Shown piece by piece: positions 22,360-54,070 of a stretch of DNA of 64,000 bases. The translations under genes were made by a program, and so were the position numbers. How positions within the stretch are numbered: position 1 is the stretch's first letter; each line of letters opens with the position of its first letter. The notes below the pieces were generated by a model. It worked only from the letters and a program-made list of their open reading frames with translations, had not been told where the DNA came from and ran no database searches. Source of the stretch: an uncultured Gammaproteobacteria bacterium (GTDB taxonomy: Bacteria; Patescibacteriota; Microgenomatia; CAZETR01; Amesbacteraceae); NCBI GenBank assembly GCA_964543035.1, contig CAZIVL010000001.1, forward strand, positions 303,736 through 367,735, given 5' to 3'.

Positions 22360-23377
22360 CATTTCGTCGGTCATCTTTAGGACTGGTGTATCCAGATATA
22401 CCCAAGAATTGGTTCGTCATCTGCCGAATGATTTGCTGCTTCCGTTTGGATTTTCTATGAGAAGAGGAGGGGAGTTTCCTGCAGGCACCAAAGTCTTCCC
22501 CCTCCCCCCGACTGCCATGCACTATTTATGGAACAAATACCACACCCTAAGTGTAGAATCTTTGGTGGGGGACATGGATGTCTATCACTCGTCAGATTGG
22601 GCCCAGGGGCCGAGTCGGGCCAAAAAAGTCACTACTATCCATGATCTGTCCCCATTTTTATTTCCCGAGGAGACTGATTCTCAGATTTTGGCTGTTCATA
22701 CTGCTCGTATGAAGTGGGTTATCAAGGAATGCGATGCCGTTATCTGCGTATCGCAAAATACCGCCTCAGATCTACAAAAATTATTCAATTATCCTTCATC
22801 AAAAATCCACATCATCCCCGAAGCTCTACCCACACCACACCAATTATCTCCTGATACATCATACGTTATACCAGATACATCATACTTGTTAGCCATCGGC
22901 GCCCGCCAGCCCCGAAAAAACATCAAGCGCCTTATCTCAGCTTATTTAGCACATCGGTCCAAGTACTTTCTCCCCGAAAAACTCATCATTATCGGGGAAA
23001 TACCTGATACAACATACAAAATACATGATACGGTCCAGTTTACTGGTCCCGTCTCAGACCAAGATCTGGCAGGCTACATGCGAGGCGCCGAGGCTTTTGT
23101 CTATCCCTCTCTCTACGAAGGCTTTGGGCTACCCATTCTTGAAGCTTTTCACCACCAAGTTCCTGTGGCCGCTTCAAATACCTCGTCAATCCCAGAAGTA
23201 GCAGGCAGCGCTGCAGTACTTTTCGATCCCCTTGATGAGGAATCGATAGCCAAAGGCGTGGCTGACGCCATAAAAAATAAAAAGAAATTAATTTCAGCCG
23301 GCACAAAGCAGTTATCCCATTTCAGCTGGACCAAGACAGCAGAAAAGACTTTGGAGGTGTATAAAAGCTTATGCTAA
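22343..23377 (+). CDS. Glycosyltransferase family 4
   Basis: EGFGLPILEAFHHQVPV motif; 344 aa; contains tandem 21-nt duplication. Confidence 0.8.
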   Translation: MRVAIDISSVIFRTGVSRYTQELVRHLPNDLLLPFGFSMRRGGEFPAGTKVFPLPPTAMHYLWNKYHTLSVESLVGDMDVYHSSDWAQGPSRAKKVTTIHDLSPFLFPEETDSQILAVHTARMKWVIKECDAVICVSQNTASDLQKLFNYPSSKIHIIPEALPTPHQLSPDTSYVIPDTSYLLAIGARQPRKNIKRLISAYLAHRSKYFLPEKLIIIGEIPDTTYKIHDTVQFTGPVSDQDLAGYMRGAEAFVYPSLYEGFGLPILEAFHHQVPVAASNTSSIPEVAGSAAVLFDPLDEESIAKGVADAIKNKKKLISAGTKQLSHFSWTKTAEKTLEVYKSLC

Positions 23378-24489
23378 TAGGAATTGATGCCAATGAGGCA
23401 AATTTGACCCAAAACCGGGTGGGTATCAACCAGTATGCTTTTGAGCTGTTGCATGCCCTCTACAATCTCGACACCCCACACATATTTGTCATATATCTTA
23501 AATCCAAGCCCCAGCCAGATCTGCCGGTCGCCCGAAAAAACTGGCATTATAGGGTCATTCCTTTTCCCAAGCTCTGGACCCAGACCAGGCTGCCTGTGGA
23601 TCTCTTTACTCACGCTCCCAGCCCTACGGTTTTCTTTAGCATGACCCACTACGCCCCCCGCTGGTCACCCGTTCCCACGGTCGTGGCCATCATGGATCTG
23701 GGTTTTTTGAGCTCTCCCGAGCAGTTTACTCCCCGCGATTTTAATCAGCTCAAATCTTGGACACACTATTCAGTAAAAAATGCCAAAAAAATTATTGCCA
23801 TCTCCCAATTTACCAAGGAAGCCATCCAAAAAGAATACAAGCGCGCAGAGGGGGACATCATAGTTACCCACCTGAGTTACAACTCTTCGTTATTTAAGCC
23901 CACTCATAATTCCCAGATTCTCGAAAAATACGGCATCACAAAACCTTATATTTTGTTTCTTAGTAGCCTCAAACCCAGCAAAAATATAGAGCGACTCATT
24001 GAAGCCTACAAAATACTAAATACTAAATACAAAATACAAGATACAAAGTTAGTCATCTCAGGCAAAAAGGCCTGGCTGTTTGACCAAATATTCGCCAAAG
24101 TAAAGAGTCTGGGTATAGAAGACAGGGTTATTTTTACGGGTTTTGTAGAAGAAAGCGAAAAACCAGTTCTTATGACAGAGGCCTCGGCTTTTGTCCTGCC
24201 GTCCCTATACGAGGGATTTGGTATCCCGGTTCTCGAGGCCATGGCTTGTGGGACTCCGGTCGTAATATCCAAGATAGCCAGTCTTCCGGAAGTAGCAGGT
24301 TCAGCTGGCATTTTTGTAGACCCCCTTGATGTAAACAGTATTGCAGACGGCCTACAAATAGCCCTTGGCCCCAGATCACAAGAATTTGTGAAAAAGGGAC
24401 TAAAAAGGGTACAATCATTTAGCTGGGATAGGTGTGCAAAGGAGACTCTAACTGTCATTCTGAGCGCAGCGAAGAATCCAGTAGTATGA
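23371..24489 (+). CDS. Glycosyltransferase family 4
   Basis: [18 protein letters not shown] motif; 372 aa; last 11 codons are formed by the recurring motif copy A. Confidence 0.8.
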
Positions 24490-36928: not shown

Positions 36929-37095
36929 TTGACTGTAGACCTACAAAGAATCTATAATAAACATATCTATTACTTGCGATGATCCAAAATGGCATTTGGG
37001 GAGTAAGGAAGAGACAAAAAGAGAAGCAACTAGGGTGGAACCACGACGCAGCTCGTCCCTAATTAATGTATTATTAATTTTGACGAGCATTTTTA
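36929..37095 (+). promoter_or_regulatory. sigma70 promoter plus T-box riboswitch leader (glycine specifier GGC) of glyS
   Basis: TTGACT (36929-34) 18-nt spacer TATAAT (36953-58); specifier hairpin CCAAA/TTTGG with loop AUGGCA; T-box AACTAGGGTGGAACCACG 37028-45; hairpin GCTCGTC/GACGAGC + ATTTTTA ending at the ATG. Confidence 0.7.
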
Positions 37096-38370
37096 ATGGC
37101 TGACTTAATAGAAAAAGTGGTCTCGCTCTGTAAAAGGAGAGGTTTTGTATTCCCCGGTTCCGAAATTTATGGCGGACTGCAAGGATTTTATGACTACGGT
37201 CCACTAGGGGTCGAGATGAAAAACAATCTTAAGAGATTGTGGTGGAAATGGTACACAGTTGAGCACGAAAACGTGGTCGGTATCGATGGCGCCATCATCA
37301 CTCATCCCAGAGTCTGGGAAGCCTCAGGACATGTAAAAAGTTTTGTAGATCCCATGTCAGAGTGTTTCGACTGTCACAAACGGTTCAAAGCCGACGATCT
37401 TGAAGCCGGTCAAGCTTGTCCCAACTGTGGTGGCAAGCTGGGTGAACCCAAAAACTTTAATATTTTGATGAAAACCGAGTTAGGTGTCATCGAAGGTGAA
37501 AAAACTCCCACATATCTGCGTGGCGAGGCCTGTCAGACAATTTACCTGGATTTCAAAAGTGTAGTTGATTCTACTCGTGTCAAAGTCCCGTTTGGTATCG
37601 TCCAGATCGGAAAAGCTTTTCGAAACGAAGTCACACCAGGAAATTTCTTGTTTAGACAACGCGAGTTTGAGCAGTGGGATCTGCAGTGGTTTACCCATCC
37701 CGATGAGATGGATAAGTGGTTTGAGTATTGGAAAGAAGAGCGCATGAAGTGGTATCGAGGTTTATTCAATGATCACTCCAAACTCACCTTTTTCCAGCAC
37801 GACAAGCTGGCTCATTACGCCAAAAAAGCTTTTGATATCCAGTACGACGGTCGTGAGATGGAGGGTATCCATTGGCGCCAGGATTGGGATCTGGGCCGTC
37901 ACAGTGAGTTTTCCGGCCAGGATCTCTCGTACACCGATGAATCAGGAAACAAATACGTCCCCTGGATAGTCGAGACTTCCGGAGGTGTAGACCGAGCATT
38001 TTTATTTTTGCTCCTAGACGCCTATCTGGAAGAAGGGGATAGAGTCATTCTGAAATTACATCCCAAGCTCGCTCCTTACAAAGTGGCAGTGTTTCCCTTG
38101 GTTCGAAACAAACCAGAATTGACTGCCCGTGCCCAAGAGCTTTACAGACATCTCAAATTAGAAGAAGGCATCTCCACAGTCTGGGATGATCGGGGAAACA
38201 TCGGTAAGCGTTACTATGCCCAAGACGAGATCGGTACCCCCTGGTGTGTAACAGTCGATTATCAGACTCTGGAGGATGATACAGTGACTGTTCGCGACCG
38301 CGATACTGCCACCCAAGAGAGACTCCCCATCTCAGAACTTGACTCTTACTTCGCAAATAAATTAAAGTGA
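37096..38370 (+). CDS. glyQS: Glycine--tRNA ligase (alpha2 type, GlyQS)
   Basis: CKRRGFVFPGSEIYGGLQGFYDYGPLG N-terminus characteristic of dimeric GlyRS; class II motifs; 424 aa. Confidence 0.9.
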   Translation: MADLIEKVVSLCKRRGFVFPGSEIYGGLQGFYDYGPLGVEMKNNLKRLWWKWYTVEHENVVGIDGAIITHPRVWEASGHVKSFVDPMSECFDCHKRFKADDLEAGQACPNCGGKLGEPKNFNILMKTELGVIEGEKTPTYLRGEACQTIYLDFKSVVDSTRVKVPFGIVQIGKAFRNEVTPGNFLFRQREFEQWDLQWFTHPDEMDKWFEYWKEERMKWYRGLFNDHSKLTFFQHDKLAHYAKKAFDIQYDGREMEGIHWRQDWDLGRHSEFSGQDLSYTDESGNKYVPWIVETSGGVDRAFLFLLLDAYLEEGDRVILKLHPKLAPYKVAVFPLVRNKPELTARAQELYRHLKLEEGISTVWDDRGNIGKRYYAQDEIGTPWCVTVDYQTLEDDTVTVRDRDTATQERLPISELDSYFANKLK

Positions 38371-38426
38371 CACCAATACATTTATCGGTGTCATCCTGAG
38401 CATTGCGAAGGATCCAGTATAAATTT

Positions 38427-47587: not shown

Positions 47588-48836
47588 AATAGTTTCAGCA
47601 ATAGATATTGGAAGTTCAAAAGTAACTGCCCTCATAGGTCAGATCCGCCCGGACCAGACCGACAAAGTTCATGTGATAGGCGCCGCTTCATCCGTCTCAA
47701 AAGGCGTCAGAAAAGGCCAGATCGTAAATATCGAAGAAGCAGTCACCTCAATTGCCGAAGCCGTCGAAGCGGCCGAGCGCATGGCGGGGTTCAATTTTTC
47801 CCGTGCTTGGGTCTCAGTCGGGGGTTCACACATCGGTTCCCAAAATAGTCATGGCGTCGTCGCAGTCAGTCAGCCCCAGGGAGAGATCAATCCCGAGGAT
47901 GTAAGAAGAGTTTTGGAAGCAGCTCGGGCAGTCTCTCTTCCGACAGCCAATGAGATCATCCACGTCATCCCCAAAAATTACACCGTAGACAGCCAAGATG
48001 GAGTAAAAGATCCCGTGGGTATGACCGGAGTCCGGCTTGAGGTAGATACTCATATCGTCACTGGCTCTTCGCCAGTCATAAAAAATCTTTCCAAATGTGT
48101 AGGCGAGGTGGGTTGTGATGTAGCGGGTCTAGTATTTTCCGGACTGGCCTCTTCTCACTCCGTTCTCTCAGATACCGAAAAAGAGCTTGGGGTGGTCCTC
48201 GTCGACATCGGCGGTGGTACCATGAGTCTGTCTATATATGTAGAAGGGGCCTTGGCCTATTCCCAGGTCTGTCCAGTAGGCGCCATCAATGTCACCAAAG
48301 ATTTGGCTGCCGGACTGCGGATTTCTCTGGAAAGTGCTGAAAAGATCAAGTTACTTCTTTCCAAGATGAAATCCAAAGAAGACGATATCGACATCACGTC
48401 TTTAGGCCTTCCCGAGGAGATGAAGACCGTTTCCTACAAGACTTTAGTCGAGGGCATCATTCGCCCGCGTCTAAACGAAATGTTTCAAACCATCGCCTCC
48501 GAGATAAAAAAATCCGGCCTCGCAGGTCTTACTCCTTCAGGACTAGTCTTGTGTGGGGGCGGTGCCATGACAGTCAGCATCGTTGAGAGTGCAAAAAGGA
48601 TGTTGGGTATGCCCGTTCGTGTTGGTACTCCATCTGGCATCACAGGCCTCATAGATGACATCACCACTCCTGCTTTTGCGGCCTCTATAGGTCTCCTCAA
48701 ATATGCTCATGCTCTTCAAGATGCTGAAGTATCCACTAGTTCATCGTTTAGTCCATCACTACCATCATTTGACAAGTTTCCAGTAAAGGGCGTTCTTGGG
48801 CGTATTGCTCAGACGATTAAATCTTTACTCCCTTGA
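47574..48836 (+). CDS. ftsA: Cell division protein FtsA
   Basis: Actin-like ATPase: VSAIDIGSSKV, DIGGGT, CGGGA motifs. Confidence 0.9.
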   Translation: MAKNKIVSAIDIGSSKVTALIGQIRPDQTDKVHVIGAASSVSKGVRKGQIVNIEEAVTSIAEAVEAAERMAGFNFSRAWVSVGGSHIGSQNSHGVVAVSQPQGEINPEDVRRVLEAARAVSLPTANEIIHVIPKNYTVDSQDGVKDPVGMTGVRLEVDTHIVTGSSPVIKNLSKCVGEVGCDVAGLVFSGLASSHSVLSDTEKELGVVLVDIGGGTMSLSIYVEGALAYSQVCPVGAINVTKDLAAGLRISLESAEKIKLLLSKMKSKEDDIDITSLGLPEEMKTVSYKTLVEGIIRPRLNEMFQTIASEIKKSGLAGLTPSGLVLCGGGAMTVSIVESAKRMLGMPVRVGTPSGITGLIDDITTPAFAASIGLLKYAHALQDAEVSTSSSFSPSLPSFDKFPVKGVLGRIAQTIKSLLP

Positions 48837-50120: not shown

Positions 50121-50423
50121 ATGTCACAGAATACTCCTCCATCTCTCCGAGACCAAACAGATGCCATTGGTCGTTTAGCCAAATCAGGTGTAGAGGCGAT
50201 GGAAGTTCTACAAAAAGTTGAAAGGTCTCGGGCCAGAAATCTTGTCGACAGAGCCTATGCAGCCACAGCGGGAGTTTGCGCGCTGGCATTTCTCGGCTTT
50301 GAATTTATAGGGGACCGCCTTTTAACTCCAGGAGAATCTACTGTCGGTAAATACACGGCCCTTGGTATCGCAGCTATCGTTCTCATTATTTCGGCGATAG
50401 ATCGCAAAATAAACGAGGTTTAA
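50121..50423 (+). CDS. Small hypothetical protein with C-terminal TM helix
   Basis: 100 aa, immediately after ftsZ. Confidence 0.4.
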   Translation: MSQNTPPSLRDQTDAIGRLAKSGVEAMEVLQKVERSRARNLVDRAYAATAGVCALAFLGFEFIGDRLLTPGESTVGKYTALGIAAIVLIISAIDRKINEV

Positions 50424-50457
50424 GTAGACCCCACCTTCCTGCGCCAGAGAAAATAAT

Positions 50458-50649
50458 ATGAAAGTAGAGGCCCCAGTAGTGGTAGGAATTTTTACAACGG
50501 GAATAGTTGGGTTATTCTCGGTCTTGAACCAATACGAAACATTTTTGTCCAATCCAGATAACTTTGACCCAAAAATGTTTTTTGGAGGACTGCTATTATT
50601 GGCATCCATGACATATTTGGTTATTAGATGTAGGTCAGACAGGAGATGA
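50458..50649 (+). CDS. Small two-helix membrane protein
   Basis: 63 aa, two hydrophobic helices separated by an F..P..F turn. Confidence 0.35.
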   Translation: MKVEAPVVVGIFTTGIVGLFSVLNQYETFLSNPDNFDPKMFFGGLLLLASMTYLVIRCRSDRR

Positions 50650-50819
50650 TAAAAGACAGACTCCACAGGCGACTGGCCTATACAGCCCTCGCAGTTTCAA
50701 GCTTTGTAACAATTGATCAACTGTGGGGCACTCTATTTGGAGAGAAGTTTGATCCTGTGGTAGCACTCGGGTCTTTAGCTACAGCTATCGTGTGTGCTGT
50801 TCTTATATTGAAGAAATAA
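50646..50819 (+). CDS. Small two-helix membrane protein (not in ORF track, <60 aa)
   Basis: ATG 50646, 57 aa MIKDRLHRRLAYTALAVSSF...AIVCAVLILKK; 4-nt overlap with the previous small ORF; similar helix-turn-helix hydrophobic pattern. Confidence 0.3.
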   Translation: MIKDRLHRRLAYTALAVSSFVTIDQLWGTLFGEKFDPVVALGSLATAIVCAVLILKK

Positions 50820-50863
50820 GATATTTACTTGAACTGTCACATAATTTCTGATAAAGACAATAC

Positions 50864-51064
50864 ATGGATAGAGATTGGCTAAGAAGAACTCTTGCTTTAT
50901 CAGCTTTTATTGGAGAGTTGATAGCTGGTCCGGTCTTAATAACGTCTTTTCCTGAACAAGCTGGCACTCTGGTACAAGCTTGGATAGTCACACTAGTTGC
51001 TACCGCAGCATTAGGATGTGTCCCTGCCAATATCAATAATCCAGAAAGCCCCGCCGGTTTGTAA
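50864..51064 (+). CDS. Small two-helix membrane protein (questionable)
   Basis: 66 aa, hydrophobic; ends just before the ileS promoter. Confidence 0.25.
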   Translation: MDRDWLRRTLALSAFIGELIAGPVLITSFPEQAGTLVQAWIVTLVATAALGCVPANINNPESPAGL

Positions 51065-51075
51065 GTCGGATGTTG

Positions 51076-51238
51076 TATAATTATCAAGCAATACTTCGCG
51101 ATCAACGAAGTGCACTGGGGAAGAACGCTTGTCCTGAGCTTGTCGAAGGATCTTGCAAGTAGAACCCCACTCGAATTAAGAAGCAATCAAGGTGGTACCA
51201 CGCATTACATGCGTCCTTGTATTAATATATACAAGACC
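51076..51238 (+). promoter_or_regulatory. T-box riboswitch leader (isoleucine specifier AUC) of ileS
   Basis: TG-extended TATAAT 51076-81; hairpin CTTCG/CGAAG with terminal loop CGAUCAA (AUC+A at 51101-04); T-box AATCAAGGTGGTACCACGC 51185-51203; hairpins ACGCAT/ATGCGT and CTTGTAT/ATACAAG abutting the ATG. Confidence 0.65.
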
Positions 51239-54070
51239 ATGTTCAAATCAGTCTCATCTCAAGTAGATTTTATAGCTTTGGAAAAGGAGCTCCTCAAGTG
51301 GTGGTATGAAAGCGGCGTCGTAAAGAAATATCTTCAAAAAAACAAGGATAGTAAGACAAAATTCTCATTTTTAGACGGTCCAATTACAGCCAACAATCCC
51401 ATGGCCATTCATCACGCCTGGGGCAGGTCATACAAAGACTTGTGGCAAAAGTATCACACCATGAAAGGGGACGCCGGTCGTTATCAAAACGGTTTTGACT
51501 GCCAAGGGCTGTGGGTTGAAGTAGAAGTCGAAAAAGAGCTGGGCTTTAAGTCCAAAAAAGACATCGAGACCTATGGTGTGGCCAATTTTGTAAACAAGTG
51601 CAAAGAGAGGGTTTTAAAGTTTTCTGCCATGCAGACCGAACAGACAAAGAGATTAGGCAATTTCATGGATTGGGACAACTCTTATTTCACCATGTCCGAT
51701 GAAAACAATTATTGGATCTGGAAGTTTTTGAAGACTTGCTGGGAGAGGGGCTGGCTGTACAAAGGTCACGAGTCCATCCCCTGGTGCCCGAGGTGTGAAA
51801 CCGCTATTTCTCAGCACGAGATTCTGACCGAGGACTACAAAGAAGTCGTGCACGAATCGGTGTATCTAAAACTTCCATTGGTAAAAAATCCAGAAGAACA
51901 TCTACTAGTCTGGACTACCACTCCCTGGACCATTCCGGCAAACATCGCAGTGGCTGTAGACGAAAAGCTTGAATACGCTCTGGTGAATAAATGTTGGGTC
52001 GCAAAAGATGCGGTTGAGCGTCTGTTTGGCAAAGATGCTGTTGTTGAATCCACACTGTCAGGCAAAAAATTAGTAGGCCTCAAATACACCGGCCCTTTTG
52101 ATGACCTGCCCGCAGTTCAGGAAGTGGCCAGTCATCCTCTATTTCATACCGTCGTGGCCACTGATTCTCAGATCATGCCCATTACCATCACCGAAGGAAC
52201 TGGACTTGTTCATACTGCAGTCTCTGCTGGCCTGGAGGATTTTCAGCTAGGCAAAAAGCGAGGCTTACCCTTGATTCCAGTTATTCAAGATGACGCAAGT
52301 TACTTTGCCACCATGGGATTTTTATCCGGGAAAAACGCCAAAAAACATCCCGAGCTGGTGATCGACTATCTAAAGACTAATGACTATTTACTAAAGACTG
52401 AGCACTACAAGCATCGTTATCCTGGCTGTTGGCGTTGCAAGTCGGAGCTCGTTTGGAAAGTGGCCGACGAATGGTACATCGGTATGGACAAGCCCGATCC
52501 CACCCATCCTCAAAAGCAGACCCTAAGAGAGCAGATGGTCGAAGTTGCCAGGGAGATCAATTGGTTACCATCCTTTGGATTGGATCGCGAGCTGGATTGG
52601 CTAAAAAACATGCACGACTGGCTGATATCCAAAAAAAATCGTTACTGGGGACTCGCTCTTCCTATATATGAATGTGGCAGCTGTGGACATTTTGAAGTCA
52701 TAGGTGGCCGTGATGAGCTTCAGGATAAGGCAGTCGAGGGCTGGGACAAATTTGATGGCAACAGTCCCCACAAACCCTGGATCGATGAAGTCAAGATAAA
52801 GTGTTCAAAATGTGAGGCGACAGTCTCTCGCATACTGGATGTAGGCAACGTCTGGCTCGATGCTGGCATCGTGCCATTTTCGACTCTCCCCGCAGACTGG
52901 TTCCCAGCCGATTTCATTACAGAATCGTTCCCCGGTCAGTTCAAAAACTGGTTTTACTCCATGATTGTCATGAGTACCGTCATGGCCAAATCGATTCCTT
53001 TCAAGACCGTCTTGGGATATGCCACCGTTCTGGCCGAAGATGGCAAGCCCATGCATAAGTCGGCCGGCAACTATATAGAGTTCAACGAAGGTGCAGACAA
53101 GATTGGCGTCGACGTCATCCGCTGGATGTATGCCACCCACAAGCCCGAGGACAATATCCTATTCGGTTACAAAAAAGCTGACGAAACCAGACGTCAGTTT
53201 CATCTCATACTGTGGAACGTTTATAACTTCTTCATTACCTATGCAAATCTGGATAAATTCGAGCCTGAGAGTATCCCAGCCCACCTGTCAATGTCAGTTT
53301 TGGATAATTGGATATTTGTGCGGCTTTCCGAGACCATAAAATCAGTCACAGATTCCCTGGACAAATATGATCCCTTCGCAGCCTCGCAAGCTGTAGAAGA
53401 TTTTGTCTCGGACCTCTCGCTCTGGTATGTCAGGCGTTCCCGGGATCGCGTAGGTCCTACAGCCGTAGACCAAGAAGACAAAACATCTTGTCTCACTACT
53501 CTCTACACCGTGCTCACCACCTTGTCCAAATTGCTAGCTCCTTTTATGCCGTTTATGTCCGAAGAGATATACAAAAACCTTACCGGTGAGGAGTCAGTGC
53601 ATCTTTCCGATTGGCCCTCTTCCCAAAATCAAGCAGCTGCAGATCTAAAATTGATTGAGGATATGAAATTGGTCAGGAGGATTGTGGAGCAAGGGCTAGC
53701 CGCACGCAAAGCCGCCGGTATAAAAGTCCGCCAGCCACTCCAAAAAATTACGGTCACCTCGCCCGAGTTGGGGTCCGAGCTTGCTCAGCTCATAAAAGAC
53801 GAGCTAAATATCAAAGAAATAGTCTGGTCCAAAGGTGATGATCTGTCCGTCGTTTTGGACACTGATATCACTCCAGAGTTGCAAGAAGAAGGCCAGCTGC
53901 GCGAGCTCATGCGCACAGTTCAGGATCTGCGAAAAAGCCAAAACGCCAGACTCGACCAAAAGGTTATCCTTACTCTCATCGAAATGCCGACAAATCTGGA
54001 GGAACTCAAGCGCCAGGTATTGGCAAAAGAAGTAAGAGTTGGTCCAGAGGTTACAATAGAGTTGGTATGA
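51239..54070 (+). CDS. ileS: Isoleucine--tRNA ligase (divergent signature motifs)
   Basis: GFDCQGLWVE, WCPRCETAISQHEI...SVYLKL editing/CP1 hallmark, KMSKS-like PMHKSAGN; start at MFKSVSS after the T-box leader. Confidence 0.85.
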   Translation: MFKSVSSQVDFIALEKELLKWWYESGVVKKYLQKNKDSKTKFSFLDGPITANNPMAIHHAWGRSYKDLWQKYHTMKGDAGRYQNGFDCQGLWVEVEVEKELGFKSKKDIETYGVANFVNKCKERVLKFSAMQTEQTKRLGNFMDWDNSYFTMSDENNYWIWKFLKTCWERGWLYKGHESIPWCPRCETAISQHEILTEDYKEVVHESVYLKLPLVKNPEEHLLVWTTTPWTIPANIAVAVDEKLEYALVNKCWVAKDAVERLFGKDAVVESTLSGKKLVGLKYTGPFDDLPAVQEVASHPLFHTVVATDSQIMPITITEGTGLVHTAVSAGLEDFQLGKKRGLPLIPVIQDDASYFATMGFLSGKNAKKHPELVIDYLKTNDYLLKTEHYKHRYPGCWRCKSELVWKVADEWYIGMDKPDPTHPQKQTLREQMVEVAREINWLPSFGLDRELDWLKNMHDWLISKKNRYWGLALPIYECGSCGHFEVIGGRDELQDKAVEGWDKFDGNSPHKPWIDEVKIKCSKCEATVSRILDVGNVWLDAGIVPFSTLPADWFPADFITESFPGQFKNWFYSMIVMSTVMAKSIPFKTVLGYATVLAEDGKPMHKSAGNYIEFNEGADKIGVDVIRWMYATHKPEDNILFGYKKADETRRQFHLILWNVYNFFITYANLDKFEPESIPAHLSMSVLDNWIFVRLSETIKSVTDSLDKYDPFAASQAVEDFVSDLSLWYVRRSRDRVGPTAVDQEDKTSCLTTLYTVLTTLSKLLAPFMPFMSEEIYKNLTGEESVHLSDWPSSQNQAAADLKLIEDMKLVRRIVEQGLAARKAAGIKVRQPLQKITVTSPELGSELAQLIKDELNIKEIVWSKGDDLSVVLDTDITPELQEEGQLRELMRTVQDLRKSQNARLDQKVILTLIEMPTNLEELKRQVLAKEVRVGPEVTIELV

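Follow-up and report, generated by a model that had tools for sequence, protein, structure and literature searches.

The stretch of DNA analyzed here is 64,000 nt long, and throughout the text "the window" refers to the whole of it. Its G+C content is about 43%, and at the locus of interest the gene order is ftsA-ftsZ, small open reading frames (ORFs), ileS-rodA, where ileS codes for an isoleucine–tRNA ligase. The subject of this study is the ileS leader, read within positions 50700-51500, which we interpret as a reduced form of T-box, a switch turned on by uncharged tRNA. The parts of the leader, and those of a second T-box upstream of the window glyS gene, are listed in Table 1. For both the isoleucyl-tRNA synthetase (IleRS) and the locus, the best matches that carry names are metagenome-assembled genomes (MAGs) of Candidatus Amesbacteria or of other Microgenomates/Patescibacteria, and several of the top-matching loci bear generic "uncultured Gammaproteobacteria" MAG labels. 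Judged by this similarity, the host is a bacterium of the candidate phyla radiation (CPR; Microgenomates, Amesbacteria-like) and not an actinobacterium. An in-frame GTG at 51110 was ruled out as the ileS start, as the MFK start at ATG 51239 is conserved in relatives, and a minus-strand ORF at 50803-51186 was taken as spurious.

Table 1. Features of the ileS leader and gene and of the glyS leader, in window coordinates.
Feature	Position	Strand	Description	Basis
-10 box of the ileS leader promoter	51076..51081	+	TATAAT; predicted transcription start at about 51087-51089	sequence
Stem I	51088..51113	+	pairs G51088-C51113 and C51089-G51112; AAUA internal loop; helix 51094-98/51106-10, extendable by A51093-U51111	minimum free energy (MFE) fold
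Specifier loop	51099..51105	+	CGAUCAA; Ile codon AUC 51101-03, then A51104; P(unpaired) 0.94	
Stem II	51116..51169	+	proximal helix UGGGG 51116-20/CCCCA 51165-69; peripheral helix CUUG 51128-31/CAAG 51156-59	
S-turn strands of Stem II	51117-25, 51158-64	+	purine string GGGGAAGAA 51117-25 opposite (AG)UAGAA 51158-64	sequence homology
Distal hairpin of Stem II	51132..51150	+	UCCUGAG-cuugu-CGAAGGA, tandem G.A/A.G pairs; motif copy D; related to the repeat at 24452-83 and 38388-420	
Linker	51170..51187	+	CUCGAAUUAAGAAGCAAU; purine string AAGAAG 51178-83, then C, then AA	
Discriminator/antisequestrator	51188..51219	+	A1 CAAGG 51188-92/CCUUG 51215-19; bulge UGGUACC 51193-99; A2 ACGCAU 51200-05/AUGCGU 51209-14, loop UAC	
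Sequestrator	51207..51242	+	ACAUG-c-GUC-c-UUGUAU (51207-22) against AUACAA-GAC-CAUGU (51229-42)	fold
ACCAU overlapping the start codon	51236..51240	+	pairs with GUGGU 51192-96 of the T-box bulge in the alternative OFF fold	
ileS, isoleucine–tRNA ligase	51239..54070	+	943 aa; TIGR00392, 660 bits; MFK start kept in relatives	
glyS leader promoter	36929-58		TTGACT-18-TATAAT	sequence
glyS T-box K-turn and Stem I	36983-37000 (Stem I)		K-turn UGC-GAU-GA/GA-GUA; Stem I of 6 bp; GGC + A in 6-nt terminal loop 36989-94	
glyS T-box discriminator	37032-60		AGGG-UGGAACC-A2-CCCU, after a purine-rich linker of about 26 nt	
glyS terminator	37051-57/37082-88		U-run 37090-94, ending 2 nt 5' of ATG 37096	

Rfam was run on the window at gathering thresholds and then in E-value mode on 501 nt against all 4227 families. 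At gathering thresholds a tRNA-Val was the only element found in the window and no T-box was reported, a result that weighs against the leader by the score test of the class. A search with the T-box family RF00230, which an earlier sequence-only reading of this DNA had proposed as a check, yielded a local match of 34 nt (51185-51218 to model positions 183-216; 26.4 bits, E 5e-4) that does not reach the gathering score of 93 bits; nor was this score reached by the 12 T-box-bearing relatives that were tested at gathering. End-to-end alignments to RF00230 were obtained for the ileS leaders of four relatives, L026 (54.8 bits, E 2e-9), L123 (42.3 bits), L014 (41.9 bits) and L024 (32 bits).

These relatives belong to a comparison set of about 150 distinct Microgenomates ileS loci (labels L001-L170), among which a T-box precedes ileS in 18 distinct leaders, that of the window included. 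Since whole-leader MAFFT alignments misplaced the window sequence, in which an insertion and a deletion lie close together, and misaligned Stem I and helix A2 in the relatives, we relied on pairwise alignments, Rfam alignments and a scripted stem table. The conservation among relatives on which the sequence-only reading had hung its T-box assignment is borne out by the 17 other leaders, all of them homologous: the codon AUC occurs in a terminal loop of 6-9 nt on a short hairpin in 18/18 cases, and it is followed by A in at least 15 of the 18, probably 16 (L123 being read on its second ATC in the stem table). The Stem I hairpins that present this codon have 17 different, covarying sequences across the 18 leaders. 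The 5' arrangement GCAAUA-Stem I-UGC is common to the window, L026, L030 and L163, and the linker GAAUUAAGAAGCAA to the window, L123 and L099. The element AATCAAGGTGGTACCACGC, recognized in the earlier reading as T-box-like, is present at 51185-51203, and the T-box sequence proper, AAGGUGGUACCACG at 51189-51202, agrees with the consensus AGGGUGGNACCGCG at 12 of 14 positions. Helix A1, the 7-nt bulge and helix A2 follow in the T-box geometry (CAAGG / UGGUACC / ACGCAU-uac-AUGCGU / CCUUG), and an Ile codon with its trailing A (AUC-A, 51101-04) sits upstream of ileS. A chance resemblance in an AT-rich intergenic region could be argued from the distance between 26.4 bits and the gathering score, and from the occurrence of GGTGGTACC by chance within ftsA as well, at 48213. 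It is effectively refuted, as judged by sequence comparison, by the position-by-position homology to 17 other ileS leaders, four of them aligning end to end with RF00230, and by the agreement of the specifier codon with the downstream gene. It is because of this comparative evidence (AUC loops, covarying stems, shared Stem I arrangement and linker) that homology to bona fide T-boxes can be considered secure: the ileS leader at 51087-51241 is almost certainly a T-box homologue.

Stem I of the window is a hairpin of 5-6 bp with a GC/GC base, whose terminal loop is the specifier loop; the hairpin CUUCG-CGAUCAA-CGAAG (51094-51110; AUC 51101-03, A 51104) had been read correctly beforehand, which supports the notion that ileS is preceded by a T-box whose ultrashort Stem I displays AUC-A as specifier in its terminal loop. 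A kink-turn (K-turn), an AG bulge and a distal loop (the platform for the tRNA elbow) were not found in this Stem I, and there is no GA motif at its base. The counterpart of the window Stem II in L123 is GGGAAAAGAAG...AAGUAGAAUUCCC, assigned by RF00230 to the Stem II GAA/AGUA columns, and alignment with the Stem II of L123, L099 and L026 argues that this domain is retained together with its putative S-turn strands. A recurring motif, TGTCCTGAGC...CGAAGGATC, one copy of which (D) had been noticed between Stem I and the T-box, is real; it is not a loose insert between domains, being instead the distal hairpin of Stem II, which is conserved as UCCUGAG-ccagu-CAAAGGA in L161, a sister locus described below.

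Two parts of the standard architecture are missing from the 3' half of the leader. The Stem IIA/B pseudoknot, with its F-box (CCGUnA), is found as CGGGnnnGCCCGUnAnAGC 3' of Stem II in 14 relatives, and RF00230 aligns it there; at the corresponding place the window has CUC(G) and L161 has CAAU. L123 and L099 carry CGGGnnnGCCCGUnAnAGCnG directly 5' of the same linker that they share with the window, and the pairwise alignments open a gap of 16-20 nt in the window exactly at this point. As these alignments have it, the pseudoknot (F-box, about 20 nt) has been cleanly deleted from the window ileS leader. A replacement pseudoknot between CUCG of the linker and UGAG of the distal hairpin was considered and rejected, L161 having CAAU in that place. 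The Stem III hairpin is also absent, a single C standing in its stead with the flanking purines kept (AGAAG-C-AA, 51179-86), and in the RF00230 alignment of L123, whose linker is identical, Stem III is a deletion at AAGAAG[0]CAA. The palindrome ACGCAU-uac-AUGCGU is present at 51200-51214, as described in the sequence-only reading, but not as a separate element 3' of the T-box: according to the RF00230 match it constitutes helix A2 of the antisequestrator, and it covaries among relatives. The acceptor-binding UGGU bulge named in that reading stands, whereas its pairing with A73 has to be corrected, since the whole of UGGU would face the ACCA end of the tRNA and only its last U would face A73. 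Bacterial tRNA-Ile has A73, which fits UGGU, and tRNA-Gly has U73, which fits UGGA.

With regard to the expression platform, neither reading of the sequence nor a terminator scan found a terminator with a U-run 3' of the ileS T-box. The scan does flag 51200-51214 together with a T-rich tail; as a terminator this candidate was rejected, because A2 is part of the antisequestrator. Regulation of translation, as proposed earlier, is in view of the missing intrinsic terminator the most likely mode. The sequestrator has a folding energy of -12.5 kcal/mol (z -5.1; 1 of 200 shuffled sequences reached this value), belongs to the MFE structure of the full leader, and pairs the start codon. The second stem of the sequence-only reading, CUUGUAU/AUACAAG at 51216-22/51229-35, does exist and does end 3 nt 5' of ATG 51239, but its loop has 6 nt (UAAUAU) and not 4, and it is not a standalone hairpin: with -5.2 kcal/mol for 51216-35, it is the tip of the longer alternative helix 51207-22/51229-42 that pairs the AUG. 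As the sequestrator reuses the 3' strands of both A2 and A1, it excludes the antisequestrator, and the two are thus mutually exclusive as predicted structures. The antisequestrator fold alone amounts to -6.8 kcal/mol, which is as expected for an ON state that would be stabilized by a ligand.

Partition function calculations point in the same direction. The three positions of the AUG have unpaired probabilities of 0.04/0.04/0.24 in the free ensemble (i.e., they are 76-96% paired) and positions -10 to -1 are at least 94% paired, while with A1 and A2 enforced and the bulge left free the AUG values become 0.76/0.47/0.43 (24-57% paired), at a cost of 7.3 kcal/mol in ensemble energy. An alternative OFF fold is the MFE structure of 51185-51250 (-16.8 kcal/mol, z -3.5); it keeps A2 and the short hairpin, and pairs ACCAU 51236-40 with the bulge. 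Pairing probabilities of 86-99% were obtained for the UGG of the bulge in the free ensemble. Where the window has ACCAU, L026 has GCCAUG, and T-box-less relatives have no CCAUG. It may be speculated from these folds that ACCAU imitates the tRNA ACCA end in cis.

No Shine-Dalgarno (SD) sequence was found within 25 nt of the ileS ATG, and an SD-like motif precedes only 3 of 38 candidate starts in the window, with the proviso that start assignments are approximate. In a genome so poor in SD sequences, hiding the start codon together with the AU-rich stretch 5' of it amounts logically to sequestering an SD. An analogous AU-rich hairpin in L026 ends 2 nt 5' of the AUG and pairs into the first codons, and in the L083 leader an AAGGA is sequestered; there the predicted hairpin CCUUC-aaauu-AAGGA 5' of the AUG resembles SD sequestration. 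TAnAAT-like hexamers are also seen 6-7 nt 5' of the ATG in many window genes and in the T-box-less ileS and glyS of L001-L007, L162, L164 and L166-L169, which suggests that leaderless or SD-independent initiation is widespread in the lineage.

Evidence of constraint comes from L161, located on an independent Logan contig (P0001), whose IleRS is 90% identical to that of the window. This sister was found by protein search and contig look-up; scans of genomes and metagenomes found no relative closer than 74%. Nucleotide identity between the two is 82% in the ileS coding sequence, 85% in ftsZ and 81% in rodA. Stem I of the L161 leader differs from that of the window by a single loop change outside AUC-A, and the Stem II core and distal hairpin are the same; both the pseudoknot and Stem III are missing, as in the window, the sequence where the pseudoknot would stand reading CCCCA-CAAU-AAUUAAGAAGCAA. 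Identity reaches 100% over the 66 nt that run from AAUUAAG up to the ATG. All differences are confined to loops, junctions, or the peripheral helix of Stem II, which is gone on both strands together, and a functional core of about 100 nt shows zero changes (Stem I arms, AUCA, GGGG/CCCC, AAGAA, UAGAA, purine string, T-box, A1, A2 and sequestrator). This comparison with one independent sister genome indicates purifying selection on the T-box elements of the window ileS leader. A further contig from another sample, L170 (Logan SRR16481186), is 100% identical over a 66-aa ORF, the leader and all of ileS; it represents the same strain and adds no independent evidence, but its identity implies that the leader sequence is not an assembly artifact.

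The mechanism that these elements would support can be outlined as follows. The GAU anticodon of tRNA-Ile would pair with AUC in the terminal loop of the short Stem I, assisted by the purine-rich S-turn strand of Stem II. If the tRNA is uncharged, its free ACCA end would pair with UGGU in the 7-nt bulge and thereby stabilize the antisequestrator (A1 51188-92/51215-19 with A2 51200-14). When uncharged tRNA is absent, the 3' strands of A2 and A1 would instead pair with 51229-42, possibly with an additional pairing of the UGGU bulge to ACCAU 51236-40. This alternative fold would bury the AUG and the preceding AU-rich stretch of a gene that has no SD sequence, so that translation of ileS would rise only when tRNA-Ile is undercharged. 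It is from the architecture and the predicted folds that we infer tRNA binding, the direction of the switch and the translational level of control.

Overall we regard it as probable that the ileS leader is a functional translational T-box switch turned on by uncharged tRNA-Ile, in a reduced form specific to the CPR. Several observations weigh against this. In the ileS T-box of N. farcinica, tRNA binding falls about 1200-fold when the pseudoknot is deleted, and Stem III is reported to be "indispensable" for binding the tRNA 3' end (PMC7583486); a complete Stem II domain, including the IIA/B pseudoknot, is required in the actinobacterial ileS class with a short Stem I (PMC7583486, PMC11297988). 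Given these published roles, the deletion of the pseudoknot and the loss of Stem III both count as objections, and since the leader has neither the distal platform of Stem I nor a K-turn, few of the known tRNA contacts are left. No tRNA-Ile gene with which A73 and the GAU anticodon could be compared was found in the window, where only the tRNA-Val was present. L161 is the sole independent sister with the exact form of the window. There is no T-box before ileS in most of the close relatives (L001-L007, L162, L164 and L166), and an absence this frequent means that the element is dispensable and often lost. Genomes with IleRS identities of 71-75% differ among themselves (L163 has a full T-box, L083 and L165 a mini form, L162, L164 and L166 none), a patchiness that implies rapid loss or gain. 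Finally, the -10-like hexamers TAATAT (51223-28) and TATATA (51226-31), 7-10 nt 5' of the ATG, could give rise to transcripts independent of the T-box.

Many of these points would be explained if the leader were a decaying relic, descended from a full T-box and no longer sensing tRNA after the loss of pseudoknot, Stem III and terminator, with ileS expressed constitutively and the 3' part kept for other reasons, e.g., as a translation-initiation region or an internal promoter. The missing parts are indeed those reported essential elsewhere, T-boxes occur in only 18 of the roughly 150 distinct ileS loci from Microgenomates and are lacking in the majority of the closest relatives, and the glyS T-box of the window is already gone from L167, a relative with 95% identity. 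We nevertheless hold this explanation to be rather unlikely: about 100 nt of core are unchanged with respect to L161 against 82% identity in the coding sequence, the pseudoknot has been removed cleanly and what is left of the leader still makes up a coherent pair of mutually exclusive ON and OFF folds around the AUG, and some ten relatives without Stem III still hold perfect terminators. A T-box that functions through an output other than translation initiation appears to us quite improbable. Such an output could be weak termination or pausing at the A2 hairpin plus CCUUGUAUUA, an effect on mRNA stability, or interplay with a second promoter, made of the two hexamers just mentioned, giving a near-leaderless ileS mRNA; it would agree with the flagged hairpin and T-rich tail, with the terminators used by most T-box-bearing relatives, with the TAnAAT 6-7 nt 5' of the ATG in T-box-less relatives, which suggests leaderless ileS mRNAs in the clade, and with the same TAnAAT-like pattern in many window genes. 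However, A2 is part of the antisequestrator and hence cannot be its alternative, a U-run is missing from the tail, ATATAC, which stands at the distance typical of leaderless mRNAs (-12 to -7), makes a poor -10 box, and the alternative helix specifically takes in the AUG.

Within the comparison set only four of the 18 leaders are without the pseudoknot (window, L161, L083 and L165) and all four have platforms other than terminators; terminators occur in 12 of the 14 pseudoknot-bearing leaders. An ultrashort Stem I is combined with a terminator and U-run in L008, L012, L014, L022, L024, L029, L049, L054, L064, L099, L123 and L163. To our knowledge the published generalization is that transcriptional T-boxes need a long Stem I, and these 12 Microgenomates leaders run counter to it. 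In L024, L014 and L099 the GGUACC within the T-box sequence is itself the partner of the terminator 3' strand, (GU)GGUAC(C), and in several Microgenomates ileS leaders the U-run ends 0-3 nt 5' of the start codon. Perfect terminators are also kept in about ten relatives whose ileS leaders have no Stem III.

Smaller T-boxes are seen as well. The one 5' of the window glyS (36929-37098) matches RF00230 with 25.5 bits (E 9e-4); its specifier GGC agrees with its own gene and its bulge UGGA with the textbook U73 of tRNA-Gly, and both agreements speak for the T-box identity of the ileS leader as well. No long Stem I, Stem II or Stem III was found in it, and no T-box was found before glyS in the close relatives L167 (95% GlyRS identity), L168 and L169. 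The ileS T-boxes of L083 (1179-1285) and L165 (1100-1205) span about 85 nt and have no Stem II, pseudoknot or Stem III; they consist of a K-turn (GGC-GAU-GA ... GGA-GCC), a Stem I of 3-4 bp with a CUAUCAA loop, a 21-nt linker (..CGAGAAGCAAAG) and a discriminator whose A2 is different in each. We know of no previous description of a T-box from which elbow platform and Stem II domain are missing at the same time.

The distal hairpin of Stem II has counterparts in a dispersed hairpin repeat, GTCATYCTGAGC-n3-5-GCGAAGRATCC(AGTA), whose stem contains tandem G.A pairs. Clear copies lie in the window at 24452-24483, at the 3' end of ORF 23371-24489, and at 38388-38420, just past the glyS stop; related hairpins lie at 51130-51152 of the window (distal Stem II) and at 1019-1040 of L099 (tip of A2). 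A copy at 5060-5092 of L161 is inserted in frame in ileS, where it encodes KSHSEPKAKNPGG in place of the ESIPAHLSMS of the window.

Upstream of the leader, the TATAAT announced by the sequence-only reading as TG-extended is indeed at 51076-81, but its TG (51074-75) abuts it directly and is one position off the canonical TGnTATAAT. A consensus promoter scan found no -35/-10 pair for the ileS leader promoter. L161 has a proper TGTTATAAT, and TGnTATAaT or TGnTATACT stands at the homologous position in L161, L083, L099, L123, L014 and L163. A terminator-like hairpin, CCGGTTTGTAAGTCGG (51054-51069), overlaps the stop of the last small ORF just 5' of this promoter. The small ORFs between ftsZ and the leader are four in the window (50121-51064, 57-100 aa, with no family match where tested), compared with a single ORF of 75 aa in L161.

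We put forward, as a possibility about which we remain more doubtful than confident, that Microgenomates hold a graded series of naturally minimized, functional T-boxes, jointly with AUG burial and a possible ACCA mimic (51236-39). The series would run from the window ileS leader, without elbow platform, K-turn, pseudoknot and Stem III, to the ileS leaders of L083 and L165 and the glyS leader of the window, which at about 85-100 nt are also without Stem II. If the minimized leaders sense tRNA charging, a specifier hairpin and the A1/bulge/A2 element with a purine string suffice, and pseudoknot and Stem III are helpers rather than requirements; in SD-poor genomes the switch would act by burying the AUG, and an in-cis ACCA mimic may fill the UGGU bulge until it is displaced by uncharged tRNA. 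Structural and single-molecule studies of ileS and glyQS T-boxes concluded that a tRNA cannot be captured unless Stem I is long or the Stem II/IIA-B domain complete, and that Stem III is needed for the 3' end. A leader that has no long Stem I, pseudoknot or Stem III, and yet is conserved and has a coherent ON/OFF design, would be a natural test of which T-box parts are required. The present findings extend T-boxes to the CPR, where the Rfam threshold misses those of Microgenomates, and illustrate how a translational riboswitch might work in a genome largely without SD sequences. If the leader is a relic instead, it documents the stepwise dismantling of T-boxes in streamlined genomes.

These results can be set against the T-boxes known so far. 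No report of T-boxes in Patescibacteria, CPR or Microgenomates was found in the literature that could be searched; in TBDB the short-Stem-I model was used for Actinobacteria only (PMC7778990). In its presumed action the window leader can be likened to the translational ileS T-boxes of Actinobacteria (class II; M. tuberculosis, M. smegmatis, N. farcinica), which also regulate ileS, have a truncated Stem I without elbow platform, a purine-rich S-turn in Stem II, a UGGU bulge and no terminator, and act on translation initiation through an alternative helix. Membership in that class, as assigned by the sequence-only reading, does not hold up, the leader departing from it on three counts, i.e., the pseudoknot, SD sequestration and the taxon: the host is a CPR bacterium, the pseudoknot is deleted, and there is no SD sequence to sequester, the AUG and the AU-rich stretch being sequestered, whereas in that class an anti-SD pairs with the SD. 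In addition, the Stem III hairpin, which that class needs, is absent with only its flanking purines kept, and A2 opens with an A-U pair in place of G.U. With the canonical transcriptional type (RF00230, Firmicutes tyrS type) the leader shares the T-box sequence, at 12 of 14 positions, the geometry of A1, 7-nt bulge and A2, the specifier followed by A, and the GAA/UAGA strands of Stem II; it differs in that a long Stem I (K-turn, AG bulge, distal loop), the IIA/B pseudoknot, Stem III and a terminator are all missing. The glyQS T-boxes, the smallest natural ones examined to date, provide a natural precedent for dispensing with the Stem IIA/B pseudoknot, and they dispense with Stem II as well; they have, however, a compensating long Stem I that grips the elbow, and a Stem III, and the window ileS leader has neither of these (PMC11297988, PMC7583486). 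The direct homologues are the full-architecture ileS T-boxes of other Microgenomates (L123, L099, L026, L030, L163 and others), with which the leader has in common the Stem I arrangement, the linker and an AU-rich hairpin of the L026 type ending 2-3 nt 5' of the AUG. They have kept CGGGnnnGCCCGUnAnAGC and most of them end in a terminator and U-run. Among all the systems compared it is to these that the window leader, as judged by alignment, is closest, differing from them by a clean deletion.

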